A stretch of 52,008 bases of DNA from Patescibacteria group bacterium. Lineage in GTDB: Bacteria > Patescibacteriota > Microgenomatia > Daviesbacterales > UBA10151. Below are positions 3,842 to 43,996 of this stretch, piece by piece; position 1 is the stretch's first letter; the number at the start of each line of letters is the position of its first letter. The notes under the pieces were generated by a model. It worked only from the letters and a program-made list of their open reading frames with translations. It made no database searches and was not told where the DNA came from. A program made the translations under genes and the position numbers. The stretch is taken from positions 9,962 to 61,969 of the forward strand of contig JBBTSA010000014.1 of NCBI GenBank assembly GCA_038064895.1, read 5' to 3'.

Positions 3842-5137
3842 TTAGAAGTCTTTTTTAAACTGTCTTTCTTCCCAAAATAGAAGTGGATGATTTTCCAGAT
3901 CACCTTTGAACTTAAATGAACTTCTAAGTTTTGCTCCAATAGGAATTAGAGCTAGTGCAGTCCAGGCTAAAGCTGGCAAGCCTGTTTTAGGCAATTCTTT
4001 AATCCCTAAAACCTGGCCGGTGGTTGATGTAGCCACCCCAACATTACCGGCAGCCCTGGCCATAAGTATTGTTATTGCGGGTGGTTGAGAAACAGTAACT
4101 GAACCACCTTGAGCTGTAACTGAACCTGTGGTTTGGGTTTGATTGCCCTGAGTATTAGTCTGATTACCGATACAAACTATAGCTCCATTTTGTCCAATGC
4201 TTTGGGTAGTACCCGGACCACAACTATTGGATACCTGTTGGGTTGGCTGTTGAAATCCACATTGACCCTGTATGCTTTGGCAGTTATATGGAGGACTTTG
4301 TGAAGAAGGAGCGCCACAAAGCATTACCACATCGATCGTACAAAGTTGTGTCCCTACACAAGTATTTTGTGTAGCAATTGTACGCGTACATTGTGGCTGC
4401 TGTGGAACTACAAGTGCTGCCGGAGCTGCAAATCCACACTCGCCCGGAACATTCTGGCAGGTGCCCGGTGCAATGCTTCGGCTGGTTGTACAATCAGCAT
4501 TGGTAGTGTTAATAGCAATACATCGCTGGTTGCCCTCGCAGACAGTCTGTTGGGTTTGGCTTGCAGTACACTGTTGGGCTGGTGCAGGAGGGTTAGGATT
4601 ACATGCTTGTGTACCGTTACAGACTAAATCTCCACAACTATCAAGGATTTTTTGAAAACTACATATCTGGGCCTGTCTGTTGGCATCACAGGTGCATTGG
4701 GCTACAGGAGCTGGAGCTGGAGGCTGGGGAGCTTCTTGTGGACACCATGATGCACAAGCACTATCTTCTTGATTAGGACCAGTGGAGAATGCTCCTGTAC
4801 AGCTACTCACATAAACAGGCCTTGAGGTATTACAAGCTACACACTCATTGTATCTGAAATCATTTGTACAAACAGGTGCTGGAGCTGGAGGCTGGGGAGC
4901 AGGAACAGGTTCAGCCGGCAAAGGTTCTTCTCCTATAACTTCAGCGGGATTAGGACAACCCAGTGAATCCGGATTAGTAGCACAATCATTTTCATCAGCG
5001 AAAACAGAGTCTGGTCCTCTTTGATAATCTCCCAAAATCATCTTCTGGCTTCCTGCCAAAAGCACCATTGCAGATAAACCTATTAAAAGGTATTTTGAGA
5101 ATCTATTTAAAAATGATCTATCTTGTAATATTTTCAT
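3842..5137 (-). CDS. cysteine-rich LPXTG-anchored surface protein
   Basis: 431 aa with an N-terminal signal/TM. C-terminus is LPKTG + hydrophobic stretch + basic tail (sortase sorting signal). Many Cys, two PQPPAPAPV linkers and two about 55-aa Cys modules ending G(E/Q)CGF. Visibly more GC-rich than its neighbours. Confidence 0.8.
   Translation of the reverse strand: MKILQDRSFLNRFSKYLLIGLSAMVLLAGSQKMILGDYQRGPDSVFADENDCATNPDSLGCPNPAEVIGEEPLPAEPVPAPQPPAPAPVCTNDFRYNECVACNTSRPVYVSSCTGAFSTGPNQEDSACASWCPQEAPQPPAPAPVAQCTCDANRQAQICSFQKILDSCGDLVCNGTQACNPNPPAPAQQCTASQTQQTVCEGNQRCIAINTTNADCTTSRSIAPGTCQNVPGECGFAAPAALVVPQQPQCTRTIATQNTCVGTQLCTIDVVMLCGAPSSQSPPYNCQSIQGQCGFQQPTQQVSNSCGPGTTQSIGQNGAIVCIGNQTNTQGNQTQTTGSVTAQGGSVTVSQPPAITILMARAAGNVGVATSTTGQVLGIKELPKTGLPALAWTALALIPIGAKLRSSFKFKGDLENHPLLFWEERQFKKDF
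4705..4732. repeat. intragenic 28-nt repeat (copy 1) encoding the APQPPAPAP linker
   Basis: caggAgctggagctggaggctggggagc matches 4873-4900 caggTgctggagctggaggctggggagc with 1 mismatch. Confidence 0.85.
4873..4900. repeat. intragenic 28-nt repeat (copy 2) encoding the APQPPAPAP linker
   Basis: See copy 1 at 4705-4732. Confidence 0.85.
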
Positions 5138-5140
5138 ATA

Positions 5141-6181
5141 TTAAATAATTCGTCTTCCTCTAACCGTAACATGTCTTGGTATATTCCTACCTCTTATAGC
5201 ATACGTACCTGCTGGTACAAACCTGCGATAAGCCAATAAACCAGCAGCTCCAGCGGCTAAAGGAAGAATAAATCCTGCATTTTCAGTCATTCCTTGCCTA
5301 GTTGCATTAGCTACACTACCTATATTACTGGCTCTCTCACCAAGAAAATCACCTACTCCATCAAGCAGACCTGGTATTCTTGGTCTATCTGGAACTGGAG
5401 CTGGAACGCTAGTAGGTGTAGCAGCAACTGTAAGGCTCGTTGCAGTAGGCTGGACTGTTTGTTTTTGAGCTTGAGCGATTAACTCTTTCTTTTTCTCATC
5501 TAAATCCTGAACCGAAGTACCAGAATCCACAATTTTTAAGAAATCTTCTGGCTTTTTAATTTCGCTGCCAAAGGCCACCACTGATCTTCTACCATCAGGT
5601 GTAACAACTTCAAACTGATCATTATCAGGATCTAGACTAGACACTACCTTAAATCTTAATGCTGGAGCTTTTTTACCTTCGCTTGTAACAGCTTCAGTGT
5701 TACAAGGAGTACTAAACTGTAACTGCCCTCTCCCAACATTTCCATCTCTTACAATATTGGCAGAAGCTAGAGGGCGATAATCAGGTTTACTTCTATCTCC
5801 CTTTTTATAAGTTATTGGAACTGCATCTACTGTAAATCCAGCAACAGCTCCTGCCCTTGGATCAATACCCATATCCAGTATATGTCGCCTGCCCCACTCC
5901 GGTACCACTTGAGCCATATCAAAAAAGGTATAGGACTCAATTCTGGCGCCTACTTGACAATTAGGATCTGCAGCTTCTGCTGTTGGGGTATTGCCGGAAA
6001 GTGCTTGGAAAACTTCCATAATTGAAGGTACTCCTGCTGAACCTACTAGAGTTGCAAGAAGTAGTCTAGAACTTAATGTGGATACTCTTACTTCGTGTGG
6101 AAGCAATTGCAATATTCCGCTCCTAGTAGCTTGAGCGGGTTTAACATCTGGTCTGATATCTGCTCTATCAGGTGTATTCAT
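5141..6181 (-). CDS. hypothetical membrane-associated protein
   Basis: 346 aa. Hydrophobic segments near the N-terminus (LLLATLVGSAGVPSIM) and C-terminus (FILPLAAGAAGLLAY), with an Arg-rich tail. Its stop is 3 nt before the start of the LPXTG gene. Confidence 0.65.
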   Translation of the reverse strand: MNTPDRADIRPDVKPAQATRSGILQLLPHEVRVSTLSSRLLLATLVGSAGVPSIMEVFQALSGNTPTAEAADPNCQVGARIESYTFFDMAQVVPEWGRRHILDMGIDPRAGAVAGFTVDAVPITYKKGDRSKPDYRPLASANIVRDGNVGRGQLQFSTPCNTEAVTSEGKKAPALRFKVVSSLDPDNDQFEVVTPDGRRSVVAFGSEIKKPEDFLKIVDSGTSVQDLDEKKKELIAQAQKQTVQPTATSLTVAATPTSVPAPVPDRPRIPGLLDGVGDFLGERASNIGSVANATRQGMTENAGFILPLAAGAAGLLAYRRFVPAGTYAIRGRNIPRHVTVRGRRII

Positions 6182-14195: not shown

Positions 14196-15401
14196 ATGAG
14201 GATCGCATATTTTACAGACACTTTCCTGCCACAGGTTAATGGAATTGCCACTTCCCTTGCAAATCAGGCCAAATATTTGGGAGATCATGGTCATAAAGTT
14301 TTAATTTTTACCCCTAAGCTTGACGATATACCAAGGAAAAAATTTCAAGCCAAAAATGTTAAAGTTGTAAACTTACCTGCAGTTCCTTCTTTAATTTATA
14401 CAGAATTTAAATTTGGGGTGTTTGGCTTGCCTCAAGTTATAAAACACTTAACCGAATTTAAACCTGATATTATTCATCTTCACTCAAATTTTACTGTAGC
14501 CATGGATGCTTTAATGGCAAAAAAAATCTTTAAAAAACCCCTGGTTGGAACCATACATGTTTATTTTGCTGAAAATGATTATCTTAAATTTATAAAATTC
14601 AGGCTGGCAGTTAAGATTTTGGGTAAATTTGCAAAGCGCTATCTGGACTTTTTATACAACCAGTGCGATCTCCTTTTAACCCCTTCCAAAATACTGATTG
14701 AGGAGCTAAGAAATAAAGGGTATAAAAAAGAAGTTTATTATCAGCCTAATGGGATAGATTTAAACCATCCAAAATTCTTATCTGCAAAACAAAAAGATGA
14801 TCTTAAGAAAAGGTATGGACTTAAAGAAAAAGTCATTTTGCATTTTGGCAGACTCTCTTATGAAAAAAGTATTGATGTTTTAATAAAAGCTTTTGATCCT
14901 TTAATTCACCATCAAAATGTCAGCCTTCTGATAATTGGCCATGGGCCTGCTACTAAAAGTCTTATCAGGCTTACAAAAAAATTAGGTCTTGAGAAATCTG
15001 TGGTGTTTACAGGATTTATTGATCATCAGGCACTTATCTCTTCAGGGCTTTTATCGATAGGTGACTTGTTTGCAACAGCCTCACCAATGGAGGTTAGCCC
15101 CATGGTTGTACTTGAGGCAATGGCTTTTGGACTGCCAATTGTGGGAGTTGAGGCAGCAGGAATGGTTGAGCTTGTATCTGATAATGGCTACCTTGTTAAA
15201 AAAGGCAGTATTCGGGAGTTAACAGAAAAAATGGAGAAGATTTTATTTGATAAAGCAATTGCCTCACAAATGAGCAAAAATTCCCTTAATGCTGTGAAGG
15301 AATATTCTATTGCCAAAACTACTTCCCATCTGCTTAAGTTATATCAAAGTCTTTTAAAACACTCTTCGGCCCTTTCGGATAATATAACTCTTTCCGTCTG
15401 A
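14196..15401 (+). CDS. glycosyltransferase family 4
   Basis: 401 aa. MRIAYFTDTFLPQVNGIATS N-terminus and EVSPMVVLEAMAFGLPIVG C-terminal motif. Confidence 0.85.
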   Translation: MRIAYFTDTFLPQVNGIATSLANQAKYLGDHGHKVLIFTPKLDDIPRKKFQAKNVKVVNLPAVPSLIYTEFKFGVFGLPQVIKHLTEFKPDIIHLHSNFTVAMDALMAKKIFKKPLVGTIHVYFAENDYLKFIKFRLAVKILGKFAKRYLDFLYNQCDLLLTPSKILIEELRNKGYKKEVYYQPNGIDLNHPKFLSAKQKDDLKKRYGLKEKVILHFGRLSYEKSIDVLIKAFDPLIHHQNVSLLIIGHGPATKSLIRLTKKLGLEKSVVFTGFIDHQALISSGLLSIGDLFATASPMEVSPMVVLEAMAFGLPIVGVEAAGMVELVSDNGYLVKKGSIRELTEKMEKILFDKAIASQMSKNSLNAVKEYSIAKTTSHLLKLYQSLLKHSSALSDNITLSV

Positions 15402-15943
15402 TTTAAATCTGAAGATGAAGTAGCTTCTTTGGCTAAGAAATCACACCCTTTTAGTCTCGGAGCTTCTATTATATCAGAGTACTTTAAAATTCTATGCACA
15501 GTCGTTCTAACTGACATTTTTGCACGTTTTTCATTCATCCTTCCATATATATTTTCCAAAACATTAAGGTGTGTAGAAATTGTATAGTTTAAAAGTAGTG
15601 TTAACCACTCTTCTCTTGGTCTGTACTTTAAAACAGTATTCATATGGAACCAGTACCTCTCCATTGTAGGTTCTACTAAATCCCAATCTTTTATTTGAAG
15701 TAAAGTTTTCACTTCTCGCAGCCTTCTTGTTGCAAATTCTAATTGTCGCACCATCTTAACTCTTGGTGTTTGGGCAAAATGCATTTCCAAATTTTCCCTA
15801 ACAGTCTTTAAAAAGTATAAGGGGTGTGAAGGATGTATTTGAGACTGACCAATATCAGAAGTTTGAGCTAAAGCTATATTACATGCACTAAAAAAAATTC
15901 CAGCATAAACAGCTGAAATAGCTAAGATAATTGTAATTCGCAT
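15344..15943 (-). CDS. DUF5667-like secreted protein
   Basis: 199 aa. Signal peptide, then HPSHPLYFLKTVRENLEM..FA..RL.E helical pattern typical of DUF5667 as I remember it. Confidence 0.5.
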   Translation of the reverse strand: MRITIILAISAVYAGIFFSACNIALAQTSDIGQSQIHPSHPLYFLKTVRENLEMHFAQTPRVKMVRQLEFATRRLREVKTLLQIKDWDLVEPTMERYWFHMNTVLKYRPREEWLTLLLNYTISTHLNVLENIYGRMNEKRAKMSVRTTVHRILKYSDIIEAPRLKGCDFLAKEATSSSDLNQTERVILSERAEECFKRL

Positions 15944-16026
15944 AGGTATTAGTTTGATCTTATAATGGCCGTATATAGTTTGGCAAGATCTAAGGATCTC
16001 TGAACTTGTTGAAGAAATAATTTCAA

Positions 16027-16057
16027 CTTTTCTTTTTCCCTACAATTTTTCAAACTC
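16027..16057. repeat. direct repeat, distal copy of the ftsH 3' end
   Basis: cttttctttttccctacaatttttcaaactc. 15-nt exact core ttccctacaattttt (16036-16050) is identical to 18105-18119. Coding sense is EFEKL*GKRK versus the ftsH tail [10 protein letters not shown]. Confidence 0.6.
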
Positions 16058-16426
16058 TCTATTTAACTTAGCATCAAAGGTTTTAAATTCTTTTATTCCT
16101 CTTATTTTGGCAAATACCAGATTATAACAATCTTCAAAACTTAAAGCGGTCTTTTGAAAAATATTTAAACTTTCTATAAGCAGCTTGCGCTCTGCTAATT
16201 CAAAATCCAATTTCAATATCTTGTATAAAGAATCAGCTAAGGCCTGTCTGTCTTTTCCATAGCTTGAACGCAAAACCCACACAATTTCAAAAAATACCAC
16301 TAGTGATGTTGTTAATCTAATTTTTTTCTGAGCGGCTTCCTCAAAAAGTTTTTTGGCAATAAGATATTGTTGATCGTTATCTTTCAGTAGGAATCGTACA
16401 AAAAAATTGGTGTCTACAAAAATCAT
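16040..16426 (-). CDS. vapC: PIN-domain toxin (VapC-like)
   Basis: 128 aa. MIFVDTNFFVRFL N-terminus with the acidic PIN residue. 4-nt overlap with the upstream antitoxin gene. Confidence 0.8.
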   Translation of the reverse strand: MIFVDTNFFVRFLLKDNDQQYLIAKKLFEEAAQKKIRLTTSLVVFFEIVWVLRSSYGKDRQALADSLYKILKLDFELAERKLLIESLNIFQKTALSFEDCYNLVFAKIRGIKEFKTFDAKLNREFEKL

Positions 16427-16683
16427 TTTGACTGATATTTTTTGGAGAAATACTCATTCCTGGCCTCTTCAATAATCTCATCTATGTCTTTCCCTCTCCA
16501 CTTTTTAGGCATGGGGACAGAACCGGCCAATTCTTCCACTAATCTTTCAGCCGAGGTAATCTTCAAAGACCCATTTTCCTCGGAAACTATCACCCTCTCT
16601 CCTATTCTAAAGCCTGCTTTTCTAAAAAGCTCGGCAGGTAAAGTCAGCTGTTTCTTACTGGTAATTGTTGCCATTTGTGACAT
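16423..16683 (-). CDS. vapB: AbrB/SpoVT-type antitoxin (VapB-like)
   Basis: MSQMATITSKKQLTLPAELFRKAGFRIGERVIV is an AbrB-like looped-hinge-helix motif. I chose the start at internal Met16; the track ORF extends to 16728. Confidence 0.75.
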   Translation of the reverse strand: MSQMATITSKKQLTLPAELFRKAGFRIGERVIVSEENGSLKITSAERLVEELAGSVPMPKKWRGKDIDEIIEEARNEYFSKKYQSK

Positions 16684-16749
16684 AGTAAGGATACTATACC
16701 ATTTGCAAGGATAATTTGTCAAATACAAGGAATTTCACCGCAAAATCCG

Positions 16750-18093
16750 CTAAACAGTGAGTTTTGGAAAGAACGTTTTTAGGTTTCCTGTTGATTGTAA
16801 AACTAACAAACCTTTCATTTGGAGCTCACGAGTAACTTTACTAATTGATGTATTGCTCAAACGTCGCCCATAATTTTGTTCCAGCCATATTCTTATTTCC
16901 TTATTTGTAATACCTTGAGGGTGGGAAGTAATAATTGAGAGGATCTGATCATCAGCTTCTGATCTGGATAATTTGTTCGCGCCGCTTGAAGCTTCTTCCG
17001 CTCTTGCCATAAGCTGTGAAACAGCATTAGGATCTGAAAGTATTTGGTACAGATACCTTCTCCCCTGCTCAAGTATCTCTGGATCCTGATTTTGAAATCT
17101 ATCTATTATTTCAACCAGTTCAGCCAGTATTACCCACTGCTCATCAGAAAGATTAATTTCCGATTGTGAATCCCACTTAAATTGCTTAACATCCGCATAA
17201 CCTGTTTTGACAAGGTGAGAAAGGATGTTCGAAATATTGCTTAAGAAACCCACTCCAGCTACTCTTTCTTTCTGCTCATCGGGTAGAAATTTAAAAACAT
17301 CCTCTCTTGTCAAATATTCATTTGGGTATTCTCTTAGAATAGAAAAAACGGCTCGAGTTAGACCTGGGTAGTATTGATATTTTGGAGGCTCTTCTTCCGG
17401 GGGCTTATTAGAAAGCTTATGGTAAACGAAGGGTTGATTTACCTCTCGAGCTTGATATTGGATCATACCATGTCTGGAAAGCATGCTAAGGTGCGGCTCT
17501 AGCAAACTACCACCCTGTGTAAGTGCTTCTGCAAGATCTCCCAATCTCATGGGAAGTTTTGGAGCTGTTACAAGTTCATAAAATATTTTAAGCCTGGTCA
17601 TAGGGGATCGTTTCTTAAATACTGCTTCCTCGCCTTCTACTGTTCGTATTACTTGTCCTTGAGAGTAAGAAGAAACTGTGTGGCCAAAATACTCCACCAG
17701 AGCTGAAGCATGGCTTTGGGAGAAATTAAGAAGAAGACCTACCAGAGACAGTACCCTCCTGCCATAATTGGAAATTTGATAGCCGTAAACTGATAAATCA
17801 GGATTGACTATCTCCCTTGTGACCAAGCCAATGGTTGAAAGTGACTGTTCGCAATACGTAAACGGACCATTCCTATTTATCCTCCAGCTTGGTTTTTCTC
17901 CTTGGGCGCCAATGACACTTCTATGAAGATCACCTCTGGTATAGATTCTGCCGTCTCCCATTAGACCAAGAGTTATGGCTTTGGCCTCGCTATTACCAAA
18001 AGCGGACAAAAGATTTCCCATTTCCTCATCTGATAATCTTTCCGATCTAGGTTGAGGCTCTTTGTGGTTTTGAATTTCAACTACTTCCGGCAT
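16750..18093 (-). CDS. hypothetical protein with several winged-helix-like segments
   Basis: 447 aa. Its start overlaps the ftsH 3' end by 17 nt. C-terminal ITNKEIRIWLEQNYGRRLSNTSISKVTRELQMKGLLV looks like a MarR/ArsR-type wHTH, and 2-3 similar segments lie upstream. No catalytic motif recognised. Confidence 0.6.
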   Translation of the reverse strand: MPEVVEIQNHKEPQPRSERLSDEEMGNLLSAFGNSEAKAITLGLMGDGRIYTRGDLHRSVIGAQGEKPSWRINRNGPFTYCEQSLSTIGLVTREIVNPDLSVYGYQISNYGRRVLSLVGLLLNFSQSHASALVEYFGHTVSSYSQGQVIRTVEGEEAVFKKRSPMTRLKIFYELVTAPKLPMRLGDLAEALTQGGSLLEPHLSMLSRHGMIQYQAREVNQPFVYHKLSNKPPEEEPPKYQYYPGLTRAVFSILREYPNEYLTREDVFKFLPDEQKERVAGVGFLSNISNILSHLVKTGYADVKQFKWDSQSEINLSDEQWVILAELVEIIDRFQNQDPEILEQGRRYLYQILSDPNAVSQLMARAEEASSGANKLSRSEADDQILSIITSHPQGITNKEIRIWLEQNYGRRLSNTSISKVTRELQMKGLLVLQSTGNLKTFFPKLTV

Positions 18094-19936
18094 TTATTTC
18101 TTTCTTCCCTACAATTTTTTCAAATTCTTCAGTATCCAAAGTCTCTTTTTCCAAAAGTGCTTTGGCCACTTTATCAAGCTTTAATTTTTGTTCTTTAAGA
18201 ATTTTTTGTGCTTTTGCATAACAGGAATCTATTGTCTTTTTGATTTCTTTATCAATCTTTGATTGTAAAGACTGCGAAACCTGTCCGCCTTCTTCAGGCA
18301 TTCTTGACCAAAGTCCAAACATAGGATGGGGCTTAATATTAAGAGGACCAAGATCAGACATACCATATTCAGTTACCATGTCTCTTGCAATAGATGTTGC
18401 AATTTCGAAATCATTTGCAGCTCCTGTTGAAATATCCTTAAGCACCATTTCTTCCGCTGCTCTTCCTCCTAAAGCCGTAATTATTTGTTCCAAAAGACGA
18501 GATTTAGTCTCATTAGACCTATCTTCTGTCGGTGGAAACATTGTGTGTCCTCCGGACATCCCCCGTGCAACAATTGAAATTCTGTGAACCGGATCAACAT
18601 TTGGCAGGCTGTGTCCGACAACTGCATGTCCTGCTTCATGGTAAGCTGCAATTTTTCTATCTTTTTCAGTTTGCATTCTTTTTCGCTGAGGCCCGAGTTT
18701 AACTTTGGTTGCTGCTTCTTCCAAAGCTTGAGGGTCTATGGCGGTTTTGGCTTCTCTTGCTGCCAAAATAGCTGCCTCATTTAACATATTTGCCAAATCC
18801 GCACCGGAAAATCCTACAGTCCTCCTTGCAAACCTTTCCACATTAACCTCCTTTGTAAAAGGTTTACCCTTCATATGAAGCTCAATAATTGCTTTTCTCT
18901 CTTCCAAGTCAGGCATGCTCATCACAACCCTTCTGTCAAATCTGCCGGGACGCACCAGGGCCGGATCCAAAAGATCCGGCCGATTCGAAGCCCCAAGCAC
19001 TACTACTTGCTCATTAGGGTTAAAACCATCCATCTCAACCAGTATTTGATTTAGGGTCTGCTCTCTTTCATCATGGCCTCCTGTAAAACCAAATCCTCTC
19101 ATCCTGCCAATTGATTCAATCTCATCAATAAATATTATTGATGGAGCAGACTTCTTTGCTTGGGCAAACATATCTCTCACGCGACTAGCACCCACACCTA
19201 CGAGCATTTCCATGAATTCAGAACCTGCTATAGAGTAAAATGGTACTTTGGCTTCTCCTGCTATGGCTCTTGAAATAAGCGTTTTTCCACACCCGGGTGG
19301 ACCCACAAGTAGAACTCCTTTTGGTGTTCTTGCTCCAATTTCTTTATATTTTTGTGGGCTTTTTAGAAAATCTACAATTTCCTCAAGTTCCTTTTTAGCC
19401 TCATCAGCTCCTGCTACATCTGAAAATTTAATTTGTGGCTGATCTTTAGTAAAAAGTCTAGCTTTAGACTGGGCAAAAGAAAAAATTCCCTGCCCTGCTT
19501 CCCTTGCATTTCTAAAAAGTAGGAACATTAAACCCACCAAAAGAAGAATTGGTAGAATAGCTGATAAAACTCCCAGCCAAGCTTGTTGCAGGGAGAGATC
19601 TTTAACCTCAATTGTGACATTTTTTGGATCTACGCCTGAGGATTCTAAAATCTTATATATTGATTCGCCTGATTCTTTCCTTGACGCAAGTTTTTCATCA
19701 GAATCTTTTATTTCTGCCACTAACTTATCACCCTCCAAGGTAATCTTGCCTACCCTCCCATCCTTAATCCCGCTTATAACTTGAGATATGGGAACCTCAT
19801 TACCTGAAGTTGGAGAACCGGATACTTGATAGAAAAATATGAGGGCTGTGAAAGCAATCAAAGCATATATCAAAAGCCCTTTTAAAAAGCCAAAAACAGG
19901 TTTGCTTAATTTAAATCTTTTCCTTCCGTTTGCCAT
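18077..19936 (-). CDS. ftsH: ATP-dependent zinc metalloprotease FtsH
   Basis: 619 aa. Two N-terminal TM segments, Walker A GPPGCGKT, Walker [12 protein letters not shown] region, zinc motif HEAGHA. Confidence 0.95.
18095..18128. repeat. direct repeat, proximal copy (authentic ftsH 3' coding end)
   Basis: tatttctttcttccctacaattttttcaaattc pairs with 16027-16057. Confidence 0.6.
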
Positions 19937-20114: not shown

Positions 20115-20387
20115 TTAAGTATCTGTTGCAAGAAGCATTCCGTTTGACTCAAATCCCATCATCATCCTGGGTTCAAGATTGGTCACATAAACAAACTGTT
20201 TACCCACAAGCTGGGATGGCTTATACCATTTTCTGATTCCGGATAAGATTTGTCTCCTCCCTAATTCCCCAAAATCAACAATCTGTTTTATCAGCTTTTC
20301 TGATCCAGGAACCTCTTCTGCCTCTAAAACAGTTCCTACAACCAACTCAACCTTGGAGAATTCGTCAAAATTAATCATAGTAATCAA
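20115..20387 (-). CDS. tRNA-binding domain protein (Trbp111/CsaA-like), ends at an in-frame TAA
   Basis: 90 aa. FSKVELVVGTVLEAEEVPGSEKLIKQIVDFG...GMLLATDT. The frame continues after the TAA for 18 codons (KPYPIKPSSKVPPGTKIR), which look like the missing C-terminus. Confidence 0.75.
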   Translation of the reverse strand: MITMINFDEFSKVELVVGTVLEAEEVPGSEKLIKQIVDFGELGRRQILSGIRKWYKPSQLVGKQFVYVTNLEPRMMMGFESNGMLLATDT

Positions 20388-21435
20388 TCTTCATTGCTTT
20401 TTTAACAGCATCCAGGGTTTTTTGAGCTTCTTTTCTGGCTTTTTCAGTACCTTCCTTCAAAATCCTATCCACAAGTTCTGGCTGTTTTTCAAATTCTGCC
20501 CTTCTTTTCCTGATGGGATCCAAAAAATTATTTAAAACTTTAACCAGGTACTTTTTTACCTCAATATCACCTACTTGACCTTTCCTATATCGCTCTTTCA
20601 GACTTTGCACTTCACCCTTATCACTTTGCACTGAAAATGCATCCAAATAGATAAACACCGGATTACCTTCTACAGTTCCAGGATCAGTTGGATGAATCCT
20701 TTTGGGGTCTGTATACATACTCATGACCTTTTTCTCTACAACTTCTGCAGAATCTGTTAGGAAAATTGCATTATTTAAGGATTTTCCCATTTTAGCCTGC
20801 CCATCAGTCCCAGAAAGAGTTGGCACATCTCCTATTAAAGGCTCCGGCAAAGGAAAGACTTCGCCATACAGTTTATTAAATTTTTCAGCCAAATCTCTGG
20901 CCAGTTCTACATGAGCCTTCTGGTCTTTACCAACAGGTACTAAATTGGCTTTAGGAAGCAGAATATCTGCTGCCATCAAAACCGGATATTCATATAGCGC
21001 AAGGGTGTCCTGCTCACCCTGATCAAGTTTCTCTTTAAGAGCTGGTTGTCGCTCCAGTACTGGTCTGAAGGTTAGAGTGGCCAGGATATATGCCAGCTCC
21101 ATTTTTTCCAGCTCTTTTGATTGTAAAATAAAAGTTACCTTATTAGGATCAAGTCCTACAGACAAATATCCCAGCATAAGGCCTCTTATATTCTTTTCCA
21201 AATCCGCAGTCTTCTCATAATGGGTAGTTAAGGCATGCAAATCAGCCACCAAAATATATGTTTCATATTCATCCTGCAATTTGACACGATTGGCCAAAGA
21301 ACCCACATAGTTCCCTAAATGAAAACTATCATATGTCGGCCTGTCCCCTGTGAGAATGCGTTTTTTAGCATTCTCACCCTGAGCTTGCTTGCGGTGAGCC
21401 TGTCGAATCCGTTGAAGGGTTAATATGCTTTTCAT
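20371..21435 (-). CDS. trpS: tryptophan--tRNA ligase
   Basis: 354 aa. HLGNY (HIGH-type) and KMGKS (KMSKS) motifs. The first about 20 codons are repeat-element sequence. Confidence 0.9.
   Translation of the reverse strand: MKSILTLQRIRQAHRKQAQGENAKKRILTGDRPTYDSFHLGNYVGSLANRVKLQDEYETYILVADLHALTTHYEKTADLEKNIRGLMLGYLSVGLDPNKVTFILQSKELEKMELAYILATLTFRPVLERQPALKEKLDQGEQDTLALYEYPVLMAADILLPKANLVPVGKDQKAHVELARDLAEKFNKLYGEVFPLPEPLIGDVPTLSGTDGQAKMGKSLNNAIFLTDSAEVVEKKVMSMYTDPKRIHPTDPGTVEGNPVFIYLDAFSVQSDKGEVQSLKERYRKGQVGDIEVKKYLVKVLNNFLDPIRKRRAEFEKQPELVDRILKEGTEKARKEAQKTLDAVKKAMKIDYYD
21375..21420. repeat. GC-rich element (family-B-like) inside the 5' end of trpS
   Basis: caccctgagcttgcttgcggtgagcctgtcgaatccgttgaagggt, translated LTLQRIRQAHRKQAQGE. 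Confidence 0.7.
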
Positions 21436-22737: not shown

Positions 22738-23385
22738 ATGGAAACTCTAACTCAACCAGAAGATCCACAAGTATCTTGGGAGACACAAAAAGATCATTTA
22801 ATTAAACTTAAATTCCATGAATATCTTAATATGACAGAGGAGGAATACCGAGCCTCACTCCCAGATTACCAACCGCAACCAGAACAATTTAAAGGAAGAT
22901 TCAATAAACCTATCCTAGTAGATCCTCGCTTGCGTTTACTAATTCAGTTCATCAGATACCAAGTTGGGGGATATGCTACAGCAATTCGAAAAGATACGGC
23001 TAAGACAAAACGCCTTGAGGAGCTTAATCCAATCCAGCATCAGCCATATCAAATTTGGGTAGATGAAGGCCTAAAATTACAAGGTTTGAGTGAAGATGAT
23101 GCCATTAAAAATTTCGCAGATGATGAGCGAGGGTTAAATATAATCGAGGGATTGGCACTAATAAGAGAAGATCACTCTCTCCTAAATGAACATACAGTTG
23201 ATCTATCGGGCTCTCGTGAAGTTATTAGACTTCCAAGCGGTGGGACTATAGAGAATGCTCCCCGTTTTCATAAGAAACCCACCTTGCACCACTCGAATTA
23301 TCAGCTAACTCTACATATGGTTAGCCCCCGTTTTGCTGCGGCAAAATCTATCTTCCCTACTTGTGGGGTTCCAAAAGTTACTTAA
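22738..23385 (+). CDS. hypothetical protein
   Basis: 215-aa ORF on the opposite strand between the lyase-like and CoA-ligase-like genes. No motif recognised. Confidence 0.5.
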   Translation: METLTQPEDPQVSWETQKDHLIKLKFHEYLNMTEEEYRASLPDYQPQPEQFKGRFNKPILVDPRLRLLIQFIRYQVGGYATAIRKDTAKTKRLEELNPIQHQPYQIWVDEGLKLQGLSEDDAIKNFADDERGLNIIEGLALIREDHSLLNEHTVDLSGSREVIRLPSGGTIENAPRFHKKPTLHHSNYQLTLHMVSPRFAAAKSIFPTCGVPKVT

Positions 23386-24350
23386 CTAAGTAGATTAGGG
23401 ATCTCATCAGGAGTTTTGGCAATAGTTACTCCGGCAGACTTCAAAGACTCTATTTTTGATTTATATGAGCCTTTGTCACCATAAACTATGGCTCCTGCGT
23501 GGCCCAACTTAGTTCCTTGTGGTAAGGACTCTGCAAATAAACCAGATATAAAAGCCACAACCTTCTTGGTAAACTTTAGTCCTGAGCGATCCGGCGATAG
23601 CCGGAGAGTCGAAGGATTTCCATTCCTAATCATCTCTGCTGCTTCTTCCTCATATGTCCCTCCTATTTCTCCAAAGATTACCACAGCAGTAGTCTGAGGA
23701 TCTTTTTCAAAGTCCTCCAGTAAATCTGCAAAGGTTGTTCCTTCCAGAATATCTCCACCTATCCCAATCACAGTAGACTGCCCTATTCCATTTTTAGTTA
23801 AAATCCAGGAAACTTCAGATGCCATTCCTCCTGATTTGGAAATTACCCCAACAGATCCTTTGGAAAATACTCCTCTTGGATCATCTCCTCCTATTTGTCC
23901 TACCTTCCCAATTCCCGGAGAAATAATACCCATTGAAGATGGTCCTACAACCCTGATCCTCACCTCGGAGGTGTGATTAGTTGCTCCTTGTTTCACCTCC
24001 GAGGTGTGACGAGCTAAAGCTATAGCCTTAGCAGTATCTGCAATTGGTACATGTTCAGTAAAAACATTTATAAGGGGAATTTGAGCCTTTATAGTCTCTT
24101 CCATGGCACCAAAAACTGCAAAGTTAGGAACAGAAATTAAAGAAGTATTAATTCCTGGATGATTCTCCAAAGCCTCAGCAATGGTGTTATAAACAGGAAC
24201 CCCATGAACCTCTTGTCCACCTTTTCCGGGAGTTACTCCAGCCAAGACTTTAGTGCCATAATTTTTCATCTGCAAAGTAACCTTCTGGCCTTCTTTACCA
24301 GTTATTCCCTGAACTAGTACTTTGGTGGTGTTGGTAACCAATATAGCCAC
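23382..24350 (-). CDS. succinyl/citryl-CoA synthetase alpha-type subunit (CoA-binding, phosphohistidine)
   Basis: 322 aa, GTG start with AGGAG 7 nt upstream. QGITGKEG, GVTPGKGG, GIGGD and GHAGAIV (catalytic His) motifs. Two in-frame repeat insertions. Confidence 0.85.
   Translation of the reverse strand: MAILVTNTTKVLVQGITGKEGQKVTLQMKNYGTKVLAGVTPGKGGQEVHGVPVYNTIAEALENHPGINTSLISVPNFAVFGAMEETIKAQIPLINVFTEHVPIADTAKAIALARHTSEVKQGATNHTSEVRIRVVGPSSMGIISPGIGKVGQIGGDDPRGVFSKGSVGVISKSGGMASEVSWILTKNGIGQSTVIGIGGDILEGTTFADLLEDFEKDPQTTAVVIFGEIGGTYEEEAAEMIRNGNPSTLRLSPDRSGLKFTKKVVAFISGLFAESLPQGTKLGHAGAIVYGDKGSYKSKIESLKSAGVTIAKTPDEIPNLLS
23581..23616. repeat. GC-rich mini-element family B (CCTGAGC...GTCGAAGG), in frame
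   Basis: cctgagcgatccggcgatagccggagagtcgaagga. 36 nt = 12 codons (PSTLRLSPDRSG). 33/36 identical to 25144-25179. Confidence 0.85.
23960..24009. repeat. inverted pair of 13-nt GC-rich palindromes, in frame
   Basis: tCACCTCGGAGGTGtga ... tCACCTCCGAGGTGtga, translated HTSEVKQGATNHTSEV. Confidence 0.8.
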
Positions 24351-24515: not shown

Positions 24516-25721
24516 TTATTTTCCATATGCTAAATCTACCATGACCTTAGCTGTAGAGGTCATTGGTGTCTCCCTTCCAAAAATATGAAAATCAAATCCT
24601 TCTTTTTTTCCTATTACTTTTAACTCCTCAAAAGCTTTTTTATCATTTGGCCCACCCCTTCTTATCACAATTGGGTATTTTGGTTTAATTTCTCTTAAGG
24701 CCTCTACAAATCCCATTAAAGTTTCATAAATATCAGTAAAATTAGCTGTCCCCCCCACAAACCAACATCCTTTTAAACCGGGTTTACTTAAAACAATCTT
24801 GGTTAACTTTTCTAGTTTTTCCCTTGGAGGGTTACCAGAATGTTCTGTATAATTTGCAGGTTTTCCTCCATAAGCTATCAGAGCATCCATATTAACAATA
24901 GATCCCCCGCCTCCAGCAGCAATTACAGCTATATCTCCATCTAGATCCCAATAAACTGATCCAGCAGTTCCCCTGTGATCTCCTTGATCTATTTTTCTTG
25001 CCTCAATTTCAGCTTCAGTTGGAGGCCTGCCAAAAAGATTTCTTTCAGGAAACTCTACCCCGATTAAATCGGGGTTCTCTCTTCTTCTAAAAGTGGCATC
25101 ATCATCCAAAATTATCTTAGCGTCTAACGCAAGATAATTTTGCCCTGAGCGATCCGGCGAAAGCTGGAGAGTCGAAGGGCTACCTTTGCCCACAGCTAAG
25201 GGATTAATCTCAGCCAATTCACAATCATATTTTATAAATACTTCCCATAATTTTTTGACTGTTTCTACTAAATAACCTGGGAGGTTAATTAGGTTTGCAC
25301 CTAGGGGGTCCAACATATCAACAGGTTCAGTTTTTGTTTCCTTTTCCTCAGTTCCAGTTCCTCCCTCCCCAAAAGTCATTACTGGTCCTCTTGTTTCTGT
25401 AGAGTATGAGAATGAAAGATAGTATTCTTTATCTATATCAACAACTTCCTCAACAAGGATTTTTTCTACTTTTTCTCCATTTACAGTTTGCTTAAAAAGT
25501 TTTTCTACTTCCCCCTTAACGCTTCCCCCTTTACCCTTAACAACCACAATTCCCCCCCCTTCTGCTCTATTCCCAGATAAAACCTGAGCTTTTAGGACTA
25601 AAGGTGGCTTAATTATTACCCTTTGACTCTTTTGACTTTGTGACTCTAATAGCTGACTCTTGGGAACTAATATTCCACAGCTTTTAAAAAGCTTTTTCCC
25701 CTCAAATTCATAAAGAAGCAT
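24516..25721 (-). CDS. succinyl/citryl-CoA synthetase beta-type subunit (ATP-grasp)
   Basis: 401 aa. MLLYEFEGKKLF N-terminus (SucC-like), ATP-grasp region, C-terminal IAAGGGGSIVNMDAL..GGKPANY ligase-CoA motif. One in-frame repeat insertion. Confidence 0.8.
   Translation of the reverse strand: MLLYEFEGKKLFKSCGILVPKSQLLESQSQKSQRVIIKPPLVLKAQVLSGNRAEGGGIVVVKGKGGSVKGEVEKLFKQTVNGEKVEKILVEEVVDIDKEYYLSFSYSTETRGPVMTFGEGGTGTEEKETKTEPVDMLDPLGANLINLPGYLVETVKKLWEVFIKYDCELAEINPLAVGKGSPSTLQLSPDRSGQNYLALDAKIILDDDATFRRRENPDLIGVEFPERNLFGRPPTEAEIEARKIDQGDHRGTAGSVYWDLDGDIAVIAAGGGGSIVNMDALIAYGGKPANYTEHSGNPPREKLEKLTKIVLSKPGLKGCWFVGGTANFTDIYETLMGFVEALREIKPKYPIVIRRGGPNDKKAFEELKVIGKKEGFDFHIFGRETPMTSTAKVMVDLAYGK
25144..25179. 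repeat. GC-rich mini-element family B, in frame
   Basis: cctgagcgatccggcgaaagctggagagtcgaaggg. 36 nt (PSTLQLSPDRSG). The internal ccggc-gaaa-gctgg can form a GAAA-capped stem. Confidence 0.85.
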
Positions 25722-32666: not shown

Positions 32667-32684
32667 GAGGTAATGTGGTTATAT

Positions 32685-32720
32685 ATAAAAAGTTCTAACA
32701 GCATCCTCCCCCCGCAACAC
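32685..32720. repeat. 36-nt direct repeat ending in a copy of the tRNA(CAU) 3' end
   Basis: ATAAAAAGTTCTAACAgcatcctccCCCCGCAACAC. Positions 32704-32719 match tRNA 30963-30978 at 15/16 nt. Confidence 0.75.
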
Positions 32721-33495: not shown

Positions 33496-33546
33496 AGCCT
33501 GATATTAAAACACATTCAGTTCGTTGAATCAAATAAACTAAGCTAA

Positions 33547-33582
33547 ATAAAAAGTTCTAACATCGTTCCATCCCCGCAACAC
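33547..33582. repeat. 36-nt direct repeat, second copy
   Basis: ATAAAAAGTTCTAACAtcgttccatCCCCGCAACAC. Shares both flanks (16 nt + 11 nt) with 32685-32720. Confidence 0.75.
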
Positions 33583-35273: not shown

Positions 35274-35322
35274 ACTTCTTAATAAACTTATTCAAACCTC
35301 CTGAAGTTACAAAAATTTATGA

Positions 35323-35339
35323 TGTGGGCGGACCTGGAT
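35323..35339. repeat. 17-nt direct repeat (copy 1), part of a tRNA 3'-end-like fragment
   Basis: tgtgggcggacctggat. With the next 6 nt, the reverse complement reads CGAATCCAGGTCCGCCCA (T-loop/acceptor-like). Confidence 0.7.
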
Positions 35340-35674: not shown

Positions 35675-36105
35675 AGGTTTTTCTGGATGCCTCTGTAATT
35701 ATTACCGGAATAAATTCCAAAAACTCTGCCTCTAATATTATTCTGAAGCTTTCTCAAAAAGGAAAAATTAAAACCTTTGTTTCCTCTATTACTCTGAATG
35801 AGGTAATAAGAAACTTAAATAAAAAGTTTCCAAAAGAGGTACTGCAGGATTTTCTAACCTATCTTTCTAAAAGCAATTTTAAAAAAATAGAATTTAAGGA
35901 TGAATCGGAAGTTTTAAAATTTCAAGGAGTAACTACTCAAAAAGATATTCATGTTATAGCAGCGGCAAGTAAAGCCAAGGTAGATTTTATAATTACTTTT
36001 GATAGAAAACACTTATTATCCATTAAAGAAGGCACTTTACCGTTTATAATTCTTTCACCAGCTGATTTGATTAAGAAAATATTCTCAAAAAACCAATCTA
36101 AATAG
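35671..36105 (+). CDS. PIN-domain toxin
   Basis: 144 aa. MKVFLDASVII N-terminus and TFDRKH near the C-terminus (PIN acidic residues). Confidence 0.75.
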   Translation: MKVFLDASVIITGINSKNSASNIILKLSQKGKIKTFVSSITLNEVIRNLNKKFPKEVLQDFLTYLSKSNFKKIEFKDESEVLKFQGVTTQKDIHVIAAASKAKVDFIITFDRKHLLSIKEGTLPFIILSPADLIKKIFSKNQSK

Positions 36106-36110
36106 ATGAG

Positions 36111-36127
36111 TGTGGGCGGACCTGGAT
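36111..36127. repeat. 17-nt direct repeat (copy 2)
   Basis: tgtgggcggacctggat is identical to 35323-35339. It lies 42 nt from the 3' end of tRNA-Ile. Confidence 0.7.
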
Positions 36128-40823: not shown

Positions 40824-40910
40824 ATTTTAAATTTTCTAAATCCCGATCTAATCGGGATAAATATTCTTCTGCTTGCCCCGCGAAGCCTTGGCGAAGTGGG
40901 GCATCAAAGG
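40824..40910. repeat. direct repeat DR1: copy of the trxB 3' coding end, itself interrupted by a 30-nt GC-rich element (40873-40902)
   Basis: 40824-40869 is 46/46 identical to 43024-43069. It still reads EEYLSRLDRDLENLK-stop, and the sodN GTG start follows that pseudo-stop directly. Confidence 0.85.
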
Positions 40911-41463: not shown

Positions 41464-41530
41464 AGTTTAACTCCAACTTACTATATATACTAAGTATATA
41501 CTTTATATATACCTAATGTCAAGTCTTAAT

Positions 41531-41583
41531 ATTTTCTAAATCCCGATCAAATCGGGATAAATATTCTTCTGCATCAAATGCTG
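41531..41583. repeat. direct repeat DR2: diverged copy of the trxB 3' coding end
   Basis: attttctaaatcccgatcAaatcgggataaatattcttcTGcatcaaatgcTgc. Still an open frame reading AAFDAEEYLSRFDRDLENIKT-stop. Confidence 0.8.
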
Positions 41584-41594
41584 CTTAATTTTTC

Positions 41595-43025: not shown

Positions 43026-43996
43026 TTTAAATTTTCTAAATCCCGATCTAATCGGGATAAATATTCTTCAACATCAAATGCAGCTTTGCATCCCATGCCT
43101 GCTGCTGTGACTGCTTGTCTGTAATGATAATCAGCAACATCACCTGCTACAAATACCCCTTTCACTTCCGTATGGGTTTCATTTAAAACCTTCACATATC
43201 CTTTTTCATCTAAAGGCAGTTGTCCTTTTAAAAATCCTGTATTTGGCTTGTGACCTATGGCAATAAATACTCCATCTATTCCTAATTGGCTAATCTTCCC
43301 ATTTTGAGTATTTTTTAATCTCACTCCTGTTACTTTATCCTGTCCTGAGCTTGTCGAAGGATCTTGTCCTAATATCTCCTCAACAACAGTATTCCAGATA
43401 AAATCTACATTTTTCTTGGATTTTACTAACTCTTGTAATGCTAATTGTGCTCTAAGTTTATCACGACGATGAACCACAATTACTTTTTTACAAAGTTTGG
43501 AAAGATAGGCTGCCTCCCTCATGGCAGTATCCCCTCCTCCAACAACAATTACATTTTTATCTTTAAAGAAAAATCCATCACAAACAGCACAGGATGAAAC
43601 ACCTTTGCCGATTAACCTTTGTTCAGAGGGAATTCCCAACCACATTGCAGAGGCACCAGTGGCTATAATCAAGGTTTCAGTTTTCAGGTTACAGGTTTCA
43701 GTTTTAATAACAAATGGTCTAGCTTGCAAATCAACTGATACAACATCCTCATCAACGAATCTGGTATCAAATCTCTCTGCCTGCTTTCTCATTTTTTCCA
43801 TCAGCTCCGGCCCTTGGATGCCAGTATCAAAGCCTGGGAAATCATCAACATCAGTTGTAAGCATAAGCTGTCCCCCAGCTTCCCTGCCAGACACCACCAC
43901 AGGAGCTAAGCTCCCACGAGCAGCATAAATTGCAGCTGTTAAACCAGCAGGGCCTGAACCAATGATGATCAGTTTCTCAATCGTGGATTTGTCCAT
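43022..43996 (-). CDS. trxB: thioredoxin-disulfide reductase
   Basis: 324 aa. GSGPAGLTAAIYAAR, redox CAVCDG, GGGDTAMREA, GVFVAGDV. Confidence 0.92.
   Translation of the reverse strand: MDKSTIEKLIIIGSGPAGLTAAIYAARGSLAPVVVSGREAGGQLMLTTDVDDFPGFDTGIQGPELMEKMRKQAERFDTRFVDEDVVSVDLQARPFVIKTETCNLKTETLIIATGASAMWLGIPSEQRLIGKGVSSCAVCDGFFFKDKNVIVVGGGDTAMREAAYLSKLCKKVIVVHRRDKLRAQLALQELVKSKKNVDFIWNTVVEEILGQDPSTSSGQDKVTGVRLKNTQNGKISQLGIDGVFIAIGHKPNTGFLKGQLPLDEKGYVKVLNETHTEVKGVFVAGDVADYHYRQAVTAAGMGCKAAFDVEEYLSRLDRDLENLK
43024..43084. repeat. direct repeat DR3 = authentic 3' end of trxB
   Basis: Template of DR1 and DR2. Contains the 8-bp inverted repeat atcccgat-cta-atcgggat. Confidence 0.85.
43338..43370. 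repeat. short family-B GC-rich element in frame in trxB
   Basis: The core cctgagcttgtcgaagga reads PSTSSG on the coding strand. These are the same termini and frame as the 36-nt copies in the synthetase genes. Confidence 0.7.

Follow-up and report, generated by a model that had tools for sequence, protein, structure and literature searches.

A duplicated ftsH tail brackets a vapBC cassette in a Patescibacteria genome and suggests that small addiction-type cassettes land recurrently at the ftsH 3′ end in Candidatus Daviesbacteria

How did three genes come to lie directly behind ftsH, with what reads as a second copy of the ftsH tail at their far border and no recombinase among them? This question was raised by a 52,008-nucleotide (nt) stretch of DNA from a Patescibacteria group bacterium (assembly GCA_038064895.1, contig JBBTSA010000014.1, positions 9,962 to 61,969), referred to here in its whole length as the window. 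The three genes encode a 447-amino-acid (aa) protein, the antitoxin VapB, and the toxin VapC, and the original prediction had read them as a 2.1-kb insertion at the 3′ end of ftsH, bracketed by a duplicated ftsH tail. Our study covered the 52 kb of host genome and, in relatives, approximately 8 kb on each side of ftsH; it used assembled contigs, and the protein functions given are predictions. The comparison with relatives indicated that, in Candidatus Daviesbacteria, small addiction-type cassettes have landed repeatedly at the ftsH 3′ end.

The two copies of the repeat shared a 15-nt exact core, TTCCCTACAATTTTT on the plus strand, at 16036-16050 and 18105-18119. Overall, the copies were 20/23 identical without gaps and 29/32 identical with two 1-nt gaps, which left the earlier figure of approximately 27/31 about right. 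The window duplication amounted to 32-35 nt, including the two 1-nt indels. The distal copy reads GAG TTT GAA AAA TT- GTA GGG AAA AAG AAA AGT TGA, and when its one lost base is restored, it encodes EFEK(I/L)VGKKKS with the former stop codon in place. FtsH normally ends in this way in related Candidatus Daviesbacteria; in 24 relatives, its C-terminus was ...(D/E)EFEK(I/L)VGKKK plus 1-3 residues, followed by the stop. That former ending has been lost from the working ftsH of the window: where ftsH meets the 447-aa gene, the original stop has been replaced, and the C-terminus is therefore ca. 5 residues longer than in relatives. The reading frame now runs on through the start of the 447-aa gene, and the two genes overlap by 17 nt. 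The distal copy was also found to supply the end of vapC, as had been proposed: the last codons of the toxin gene (REFEKL) and its TAG stop were read from it, the last five codons and the stop being relic.

An exact match of 15 nt was unremarkable by itself, as the window contained 19 direct pairs of 15 nt or more, and gapped scores, window-wide tiles, and comparison with relatives were therefore used. Dinucleotide shuffling of the 5 kb downstream of ftsH, repeated 500 times, gave gapped scores with a mean of 11.4, a standard deviation of 1.3, and a maximum of 18.5, and never the 21.5 of the actual repeat, contrary to the possibility that the repeat was no better than expected of AT-rich DNA. 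When 2928 window tiles were each compared with their own 5-kb neighborhood, only four distinct repeat loci reached this score. Against the ftsH tails of other species, the distal copy matched at 29 (L018) and 28 (L013) of 38, and at 24 against the proximal copy of the window (loci and contigs of relatives are given by L numbers); its AGT-TGA end was also present in ftsH tails of other species. Matching of each copy to the tails of 70 relatives did not separate a host-derived from a donor-derived copy, the segment being too short and too conserved. The distal copy is an authentic relic of the ftsH tail, the comparison with relatives being decisive on this point.

Relatives were represented by 80 ftsH loci (one genome per species scanned) with 52-84% protein identity, nearly all from Candidatus Daviesbacteria (Microgenomates), and relics were sought by aligning the ftsH tail of each locus to its own downstream DNA. 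The conserved backbone consisted of trpS, a tRNA-binding gene, ftsH, a DUF5667 gene, a glycosyltransferase, a hydrolase, and polA. The empty site called for by the original prediction was present in ca. 25 relatives, in which DUF5667 followed ftsH within 12-110 nt. These included the nearest loci to the window in the FtsH tree (L013, L012, L016, and L020), and the right flank of the window aligned with the empty-site relatives. Both repeat copies aligned to the single ftsH tail of relatives, and unoccupied loci had no second copy; the background score for tail copies was 14 or less in ca. 65 unoccupied loci, bar one unrelated hit of 19.5. The empty sites and the relic together supported an insertion at the ftsH 3′ end bracketed by a duplicated ftsH tail.

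A copy of the ftsH tail at the far end of inserted DNA was found in ten further architectures, with lengths of 21-95 nt. Homologues of vapB and vapC lay directly downstream of ftsH in 7 of the 80 loci, with VapB 70-83% and VapC 47-59% identical to the window. The vapBC pair stood alone between the repeats in L037 (relic of 30 nt), L077 (43 nt), and L044 (56/63, terminating exactly at the stop), and was preceded by a 237-aa open reading frame (ORF) in L075 (relic of ca. 95 nt) and by a 109-aa ORF in L134 (56 nt). Contig L097 bracketed the same three genes as the window with a 28/28 repeat, and the case in which relatives carry these genes without a repeat was thus not the one encountered. Two-gene modules other than vapBC also ended in a tail copy: a DUF2283 gene with a 96-aa partner on the opposite strand in L057 (relic of 32 nt), a Gp49 (HigB-like) and HTH_3 pair in L069 (21/21), and a DUF5678/retropepsin-like pair in L130-L132. 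The site is in this sense a general hot spot. In L130-L132, two cassettes were arranged in series, in the order ftsH, 112-aa ORF, DUF5678/retropepsin-like pair, tail copy (29/30), 57-aa ORF, vapBC, tail copy (38/44). The duplications in relatives measured 43, 44, 56, 63, and 95 nt, and also 21, 28 or more, and 30 nt.

The core cargo of the window is the vapBC operon, which adjoins the relic and has a predicted promoter of its own. The claim that the cargo comprises the 447-aa gene and VapBC was accurate for the window and for L097, but the unit that recurred beside the relic was vapBC only, and unrelated ORFs occupied the slot of the 447-aa gene in L075, L134, and L130. An antitoxin of the AbrB/MazE type was followed by a PIN-domain toxin in one predicted operon, the two genes overlapping by 4 nt, and vapBC appears to be an ordinary type II toxin-antitoxin module. 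Upstream of vapB, a promoter-like site (TTGACA-18-TATAGT, with a TG extension) was the best sigma-70-like match of the region, at 11/12. Three evenly spaced TCCTTG(C/T) motifs (16684-16749) bracketed its -35 and -10 elements and were conserved in L037, L077, L085, L075, and L097; these repeats may be VapB operators. The intergenic region upstream of vapB was itself conserved in L097, L037, L075, L077, and L085. Directly upstream of the promoter-like site lay a motif, CGGATTTTGYGG, that formed the left border of the vapBC promoter region; it abutted the stop of the 447-aa gene in the window and L097 and the stop of the 237-aa ORF in L075, and in L037 it lay 14 nt past the ftsH stop.

The capture of an ftsH tail by vapC was not confined to the window. 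A protein search with VapC returned at least 11 further database homologues that ended in an in-frame FtsH tail, and in several relatives, 10-31 FtsH residues were fused in frame to VapC. The junctions fell into two classes, one in which ...FDxKLDK was followed by a long FtsH tail and one that read ...FDxKLxKEF|EKIVGKKKS; the native C-terminus of more distant VapC homologues was ...KLAKAFKTQ. Three VapC homologues of 158 aa (P0091-P0093) carried a different 30-residue C-terminal extension, ...SSEQETQWEEFEMSRSKKKTKKEK..., which may be a gene tail captured from another lineage.

The 447-aa protein was confirmed to be rich in winged helix-turn-helix (wHTH) domains. Its AlphaFold2 model (pLDDT 88.4, pTM 0.78) contained four tandem winged-helix units, each built as helix-helix-helix-strand-strand, and a helical linker. 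Foldseek against the PDB matched single wHTH domains only (BlaI, ArsR, PadR, Fur, and Rpc34; probability 1.0 to BlaI, ArsR, PadR, and Fur), with no significant full-length structural match. Sequence hits were weak (HlyU, 0.004; ArsR/SmtB, 7e-4), and no specific family beyond generic wHTH was found with Pfam, NCBIfam, PADLOC, a PDB sequence profile, or Foldseek. The protein belongs to a single-copy Microgenomates family of which 48 database proteins were recovered, all nameless except for one annotated as a winged helix-turn-helix transcriptional regulator; no relatives were found in viral contigs. Two tandem paralogues of the family were observed in L112 (1337-2710 and 3504-4868). In L107, a homologue (959-2302) lay ca. 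2 kb from a 505-aa ORF (4212-5729) that, judged by eye, resembled a large serine recombinase, with an excisionase-like HTH gene between them.

The closest homologue of the 447-aa protein (64% identity) was on the 2.1-kb contig L097, which had the architecture of the window: an ftsH tail (EFEKLVGKKKINA-stop), the homologue, vapB (86% identity; VapB downstream of ftsH in relatives ranged from 70 to 86%), and vapC (70%). The vapC gene of L097 read in frame into EFEKLVGKK.... In L092, from a co-occurring strain, the DNA upstream of vapB likewise held the 3′ end of a 447-like gene, in divergent form. No homologue was located within 8 kb of ftsH in any of the 80 ftsH loci, and the family occupied the ftsH-proximal slot only in the window and two sister lineages. 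Elsewhere (48 database proteins, 32 metagenome loci), it was a stand-alone gene in scattered contexts, never beside vapBC, with neighbors that included polysaccharide genes of the dnaA/yidC region, radA, thyA/folA, and comEC; L008 had the order trpS, 447-aa homologue, ftsH. Because the slot between the ftsH stop and CGGATTTTGYGG was filled differently across lineages, we infer that the 447-aa gene is a lineage-specific passenger, either added later or part of a lineage-specific composite unit. The 17-nt overlap suggested that it is probably co-transcribed with ftsH. Two other ORFs were considered as homologues and rejected: the 418-aa Sigma70_r4 ORF of L046 had no homology to the 447-aa protein, and the 237-aa ORF of L075 gave only a weak 59-column match, with 23% probability. 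Proteins of 390-420 aa with Sigma70_r4 and HTH domains were present downstream of ftsH in deeper Daviesbacteria (L046, 9895-11151; L058, 9854-11107; L050, 6023-7201), adjoining ftsH in L046 and L058 and lying ca. 2 kb downstream in L050; placed much like the 447-aa gene, they represent a different multi-HTH protein without detectable homology to it.

The vapBC-positive genomes were dispersed through the FtsH tree, and each had sisters that lacked vapBC. VapC relatedness was at odds with FtsH relatedness (78% VapC and 71% FtsH identity between L044 and L077; 58% and 84% between L037 and L077; correlation r=0.11), indicating horizontal movement of the cassette. Within each genome, both tail copies shared lineage-specific codons (ATA GTT GG in L130, CTG GTT in L069, TTG GTA in L097, and TCC GCC TAA TA in L075), so that the copies either stem from the resident tail or are kept similar to it; this fits either in-situ duplication or ongoing conversion. 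The source metagenomes come from Hainich well H51 (runs ERR3858113, ERR3858114, and ERR3858115; assembly ERZ1292643). In this community, three contigs from independent assemblies of the window's strain ended inside vapB at 16555-16558, and two others started at 16579 and 16587. The variant contig L092 was 100% identical to the window from mid-vapB toward DUF5667 and much more divergent toward the 447-like gene. This sharp identity switch between co-occurring strains marks a homologous-recombination break point within the cassette and points to active homologous recombination. Positions 1-299 of L092, which were GC-rich and unrelated to the window, abutted the last ca. 65 codons of the 447-like gene and represented either a chimeric assembly end or a 447-like gene truncated by foreign DNA. 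No recombinase domain was found in the three insert proteins of the window with Pfam, NCBIfam, and PADLOC, as the original prediction had stated, nor in the cargo of relatives with Pfam on 20 cargo ORFs and precomputed Pfam for L130.

The features of the locus are collected in Table 1. Beyond the DUF5667 gene, the window continued with a glycosyltransferase, a glycoside-hydrolase-like gene, and polA.

Table 1. Positions of the features of the ftsH locus in the window.
Feature	Position	Strand	Basis or description
trpS-like gene	20371-21435	minus	
tRNA-binding domain gene	20115-20387	minus	
ftsH, 619 aa, target gene	18077-19936	minus	Pfam Peptidase_M41, AAA, FtsH_ext
Proximal repeat copy, functional ftsH tail codons	18097-18128	minus	
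447-aa ORF in the ftsH-proximal slot	16750-18093	minus	ORF; four winged-helix domains in AlphaFold2 model
vapBC promoter-like site	16693-16722	minus	TTGACA-18-TATAGT with TG extension, 11/12
vapB, predicted antitoxin, 86 aa, AbrB/MazE fold	16423-16683	minus	Pfam MazE_antitoxin, 2e-08
Recombination and assembly break point inside vapB	16555-16587		
vapC, predicted toxin, 128 aa, PIN domain	16040-16426	minus	Pfam PIN, 1.6e-13
Distal repeat copy (ftsH 3′-end relic) at the far insertion border	16023-16057	minus	
DUF5667 gene	15344-15943	minus	Pfam DUF5667

Other repeats were observed elsewhere in the window. A GC-rich segment of 41 nt was present at 23575-23615 and 25138-25178 (37/41 identical), in frame in two adjacent minus-strand genes, a 322-aa ORF (23382-24350) and a 401-aa ORF (24516-25721), which resembled subunits of the succinyl-CoA-synthetase type. 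Both segments encoded ..PSTL(R/Q)LSPDRSG.., and the pair looks as though a short repeat element had inserted within coding DNA, as the Rickettsia palindromic elements do. A family of 61-nt direct repeats (40826-40886, 41526-41586, and 43026-43086; 77-90% identity, spacings of 700 and 1500 nt) contained the hairpin AAATCCCGATCTAATCGGGAT and was placed at gene boundaries. Local direct repeats of 39 nt (32682-32720 and 33544-33582) and 28 nt (35313-35339 and 36100-36127) scored well above the window background and could be further duplicated junctions.

The explanation that we favor for the ftsH locus, and consider somewhat more probable than its competitors taken together, is insertion without a recombinase and with long target duplication, a process so far known from restriction-modification systems, with the ftsH tail as the recurrent landing site. 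The inserted DNA begins a few bases past the ftsH stop codon, and the last 21-95 nt of ftsH occur twice, one copy still ending ftsH and the other remaining as a relic beyond the cargo; with its tail duplicated, ftsH stays intact. By the favored route, the insertion would need no recombinase encoded by the element. Recombination between the two flanking tail copies would loop the cassette out, leaving a chromosome in which ftsH ...GAATTTGAAAAA is joined directly to ...GGGAAAAAGAAAAGTTGAAATTATTTC, and the highly conserved ftsH tail would provide portable homology for re-entry into the same or a related genome. Loop-out and re-insertion would explain the landing of the cassette at ftsH, its horizontal movement, and the likeness of the copies within a genome. 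As the duplicated length varied from 21 to 95 nt, long target duplication fits better than a fixed att core. The proposal of site-specific insertion with regeneration of the target was therefore borne out in part: the target was recurrent and ftsH remained intact, but no recombinase was found in any insert examined, and the duplications were of variable length. Several observations weigh against insertion by long target duplication. No relic was detected in vapBC-positive L073, L085, and L028, and no flanking duplication surrounded a vapBC homologue at another site (L025), so that the duplication is not an obligatory signature of the vapBC cassette. The start of the relic was nearly constant, GA(T/A)GAATTTGAAAAA, for four unrelated cassettes, which could reflect a sequence-specific enzyme acting in trans. 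The recombinase search covered the inserts and flanks of the loci, and a recombinase elsewhere in the genome is possible; for the window's strain, examined as assembled contigs, neither an excised circle nor an empty-site read was seen. Homology of 21-32 nt is at or near the usually quoted lower limit for RecA-dependent recombination.

The main rival view is that these are integrase-less att-flanked elements or integron-like cassettes, moved by a recombinase encoded elsewhere or on a helper, with the ca. 30-nt ftsH tail as attB. Such a recombinase would suit the constant left junction just past the ftsH stop and the right boundary, which began near GAATTTGAAAAA in six cases (the window, L037, L130 twice, L057, and L069); the serial cassettes of L130, with a tail copy after each, resemble tandem accretion at an att site, and integrases typically integrate into the 3′ end of a conserved gene and regenerate it. 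The 43-, 56-, 63-, and 95-nt duplications, however, had other right junctions, unexpected from a fixed crossover core, the copies shared host-lineage codons and no common element-borne att sequence, and no recombinase lay in any insert or flank inspected, leaving this an unlikely explanation, if one to be taken seriously. A module of the dif/Xer type was rejected, as the repeat belongs to a coding tail that all 80 genomes possess and shows no two-armed dif-like structure. We regard as rather improbable a single ancient vapBC insertion, with a duplication of ca. 95 nt, that was inherited vertically and then subjected to many repeat-mediated losses, relic shortening, and gene conversion, with no present mobility. 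Consistent with such a history, the cassette adjoining the relic was vapBC throughout, all lineages had a homologous left border motif and promoter, short junctions such as KLxKEFEK could arise from the long form by internal deletion, and precise loss is easy given direct repeats. It would require more than ten independent losses across the FtsH tree, though, and is opposed by the incongruent divergence of VapC and FtsH, by the separate tail copies owned by unrelated cassettes (the DUF2283 pair, Gp49/HTH, and DUF5678/retropepsin-like), and by the two relics in series in L130. Least credible by far is a chance match of two A-rich, low-complexity stretches, the three genes being ordinary residents downstream of ftsH. 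The repeat is short and A-rich, and exact 15-mers recur in this AT-rich window, but the result of the shuffles, the place of the repeat among the top four repeat loci, and the exact FtsH C-terminus and stop encoded by the relic all speak against it, and the comparative data, in which relatives showed the same architecture with repeats of up to 95 nt over a background of 14 or less, ruled it out. Going further than any of these, we would tentatively suggest, while thinking it unlikely, that the last ca. 30 nt of ftsH could be the dedicated attachment site of a cassette-acquisition system of the candidate phyla radiation (CPR), in which toxin-antitoxin and other small genes would be captured serially beside the ftsH stop codon, the tail being duplicated each time like a CRISPR repeat or an integron site, and the proximal cassettes would be expressed by read-through from ftsH, with either an unrecognized trans enzyme or a RecA-only route responsible.

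Insertion with long target duplication, the reading preferred here, was reportedly described for restriction-modification gene complexes by Nobusato et al. in 2000. In those systems, direct repeats of tens to hundreds of bp and of variable length were found without other mobility genes, some overlapped the 3′ end of a gene, and a life cycle has been proposed in which the complexes are amplified and released by way of the repeats (Furuta, Abe & Kobayashi 2010, PMC2853133; PMC3874152). The ftsH cassettes were similar in being small addiction-type units with no integrase or transposase, flanked by direct repeats of variable length, from tens of bp to ca. 100 bp, that are single-copy in the empty genome. 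They differed in that the cargo was a toxin-antitoxin module and not a restriction-modification complex, the same ftsH tail was reused across many species by several unrelated cassettes, the cassettes stacked in series, and the host was a CPR lineage. Several of the repeats (21-32 nt) lay at or under the 30 bp that Furuta et al. (2010) took as their threshold, and the 32-35 nt of the window were borderline. In every feature tested except the type of cargo and the borderline repeat length of the window, the mode of insertion, as read from sequence, appears to match this precedent.

The ftsH cassettes also resembled two systems that depend on recombinases. Integrase-less att-flanked elements of the ICESt1/CIME type have direct repeats that copy a conserved gene's 3′ end, a regenerated target, no internal recombinase, and tandem accretion. 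Such elements (cis-mobilizable elements and decayed genomic islands) were like the ftsH cassettes in the 3′-end gene repeats, the regenerated target, and the tandem accretion, but at the ftsH loci no cognate integrase or helper was found, the repeat length and the right junction varied, and the inserts measured 0.5-2.2 kb. Chromosomal integron arrays likewise hold small cassettes, mostly promoter-less or toxin-antitoxin, in series at one site downstream of a fixed point, and their proximal cassettes can be expressed by read-through. The newest position in an integron is the proximal one; here, judging from the comparison of loci, the ftsH-proximal slot was the variable one. Unlike integrons, no intI was seen at the loci, the repeats were direct ftsH-tail copies and not attC imperfect palindromes, and only 1-2 relics were present. 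The cassette itself was like other type II VapBC systems in the order of AbrB/MazE antitoxin and PIN toxin, the 4-nt overlap, and the strong predicted promoter with operator-like motifs, and differed from them in that part of the toxin's C-terminus came from a gene tail captured from elsewhere, that of ftsH.

Searches of open-access text gave no account of toxin-antitoxin cassettes that land recurrently, with long target duplication, in the tail of a single conserved gene; they yielded only the restriction-modification precedent and reports of vapBC modules flanked by insertion sequences or borne on islands. Toxin-antitoxin modules usually move as passengers of plasmids, phages, integrons, and insertion sequences. 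At the ftsH locus, several unrelated cassettes of the toxin-antitoxin type appear to reach a single precise position in the chromosome unaided, leaving long target duplications of the sort documented until now for restriction-modification systems. This lends support to the idea that various kinds of addiction module invade genomes by a common route independent of recombinases. The locus provides a concrete case of gene flow in the very small CPR genomes, and of a hypervariable islet within them, and shows how a toxin can gain a new C-terminus from the gene that it lands beside. A conserved gene's tail copied downstream of the same gene is a searchable signature and could be used to find such cassettes in metagenomes.

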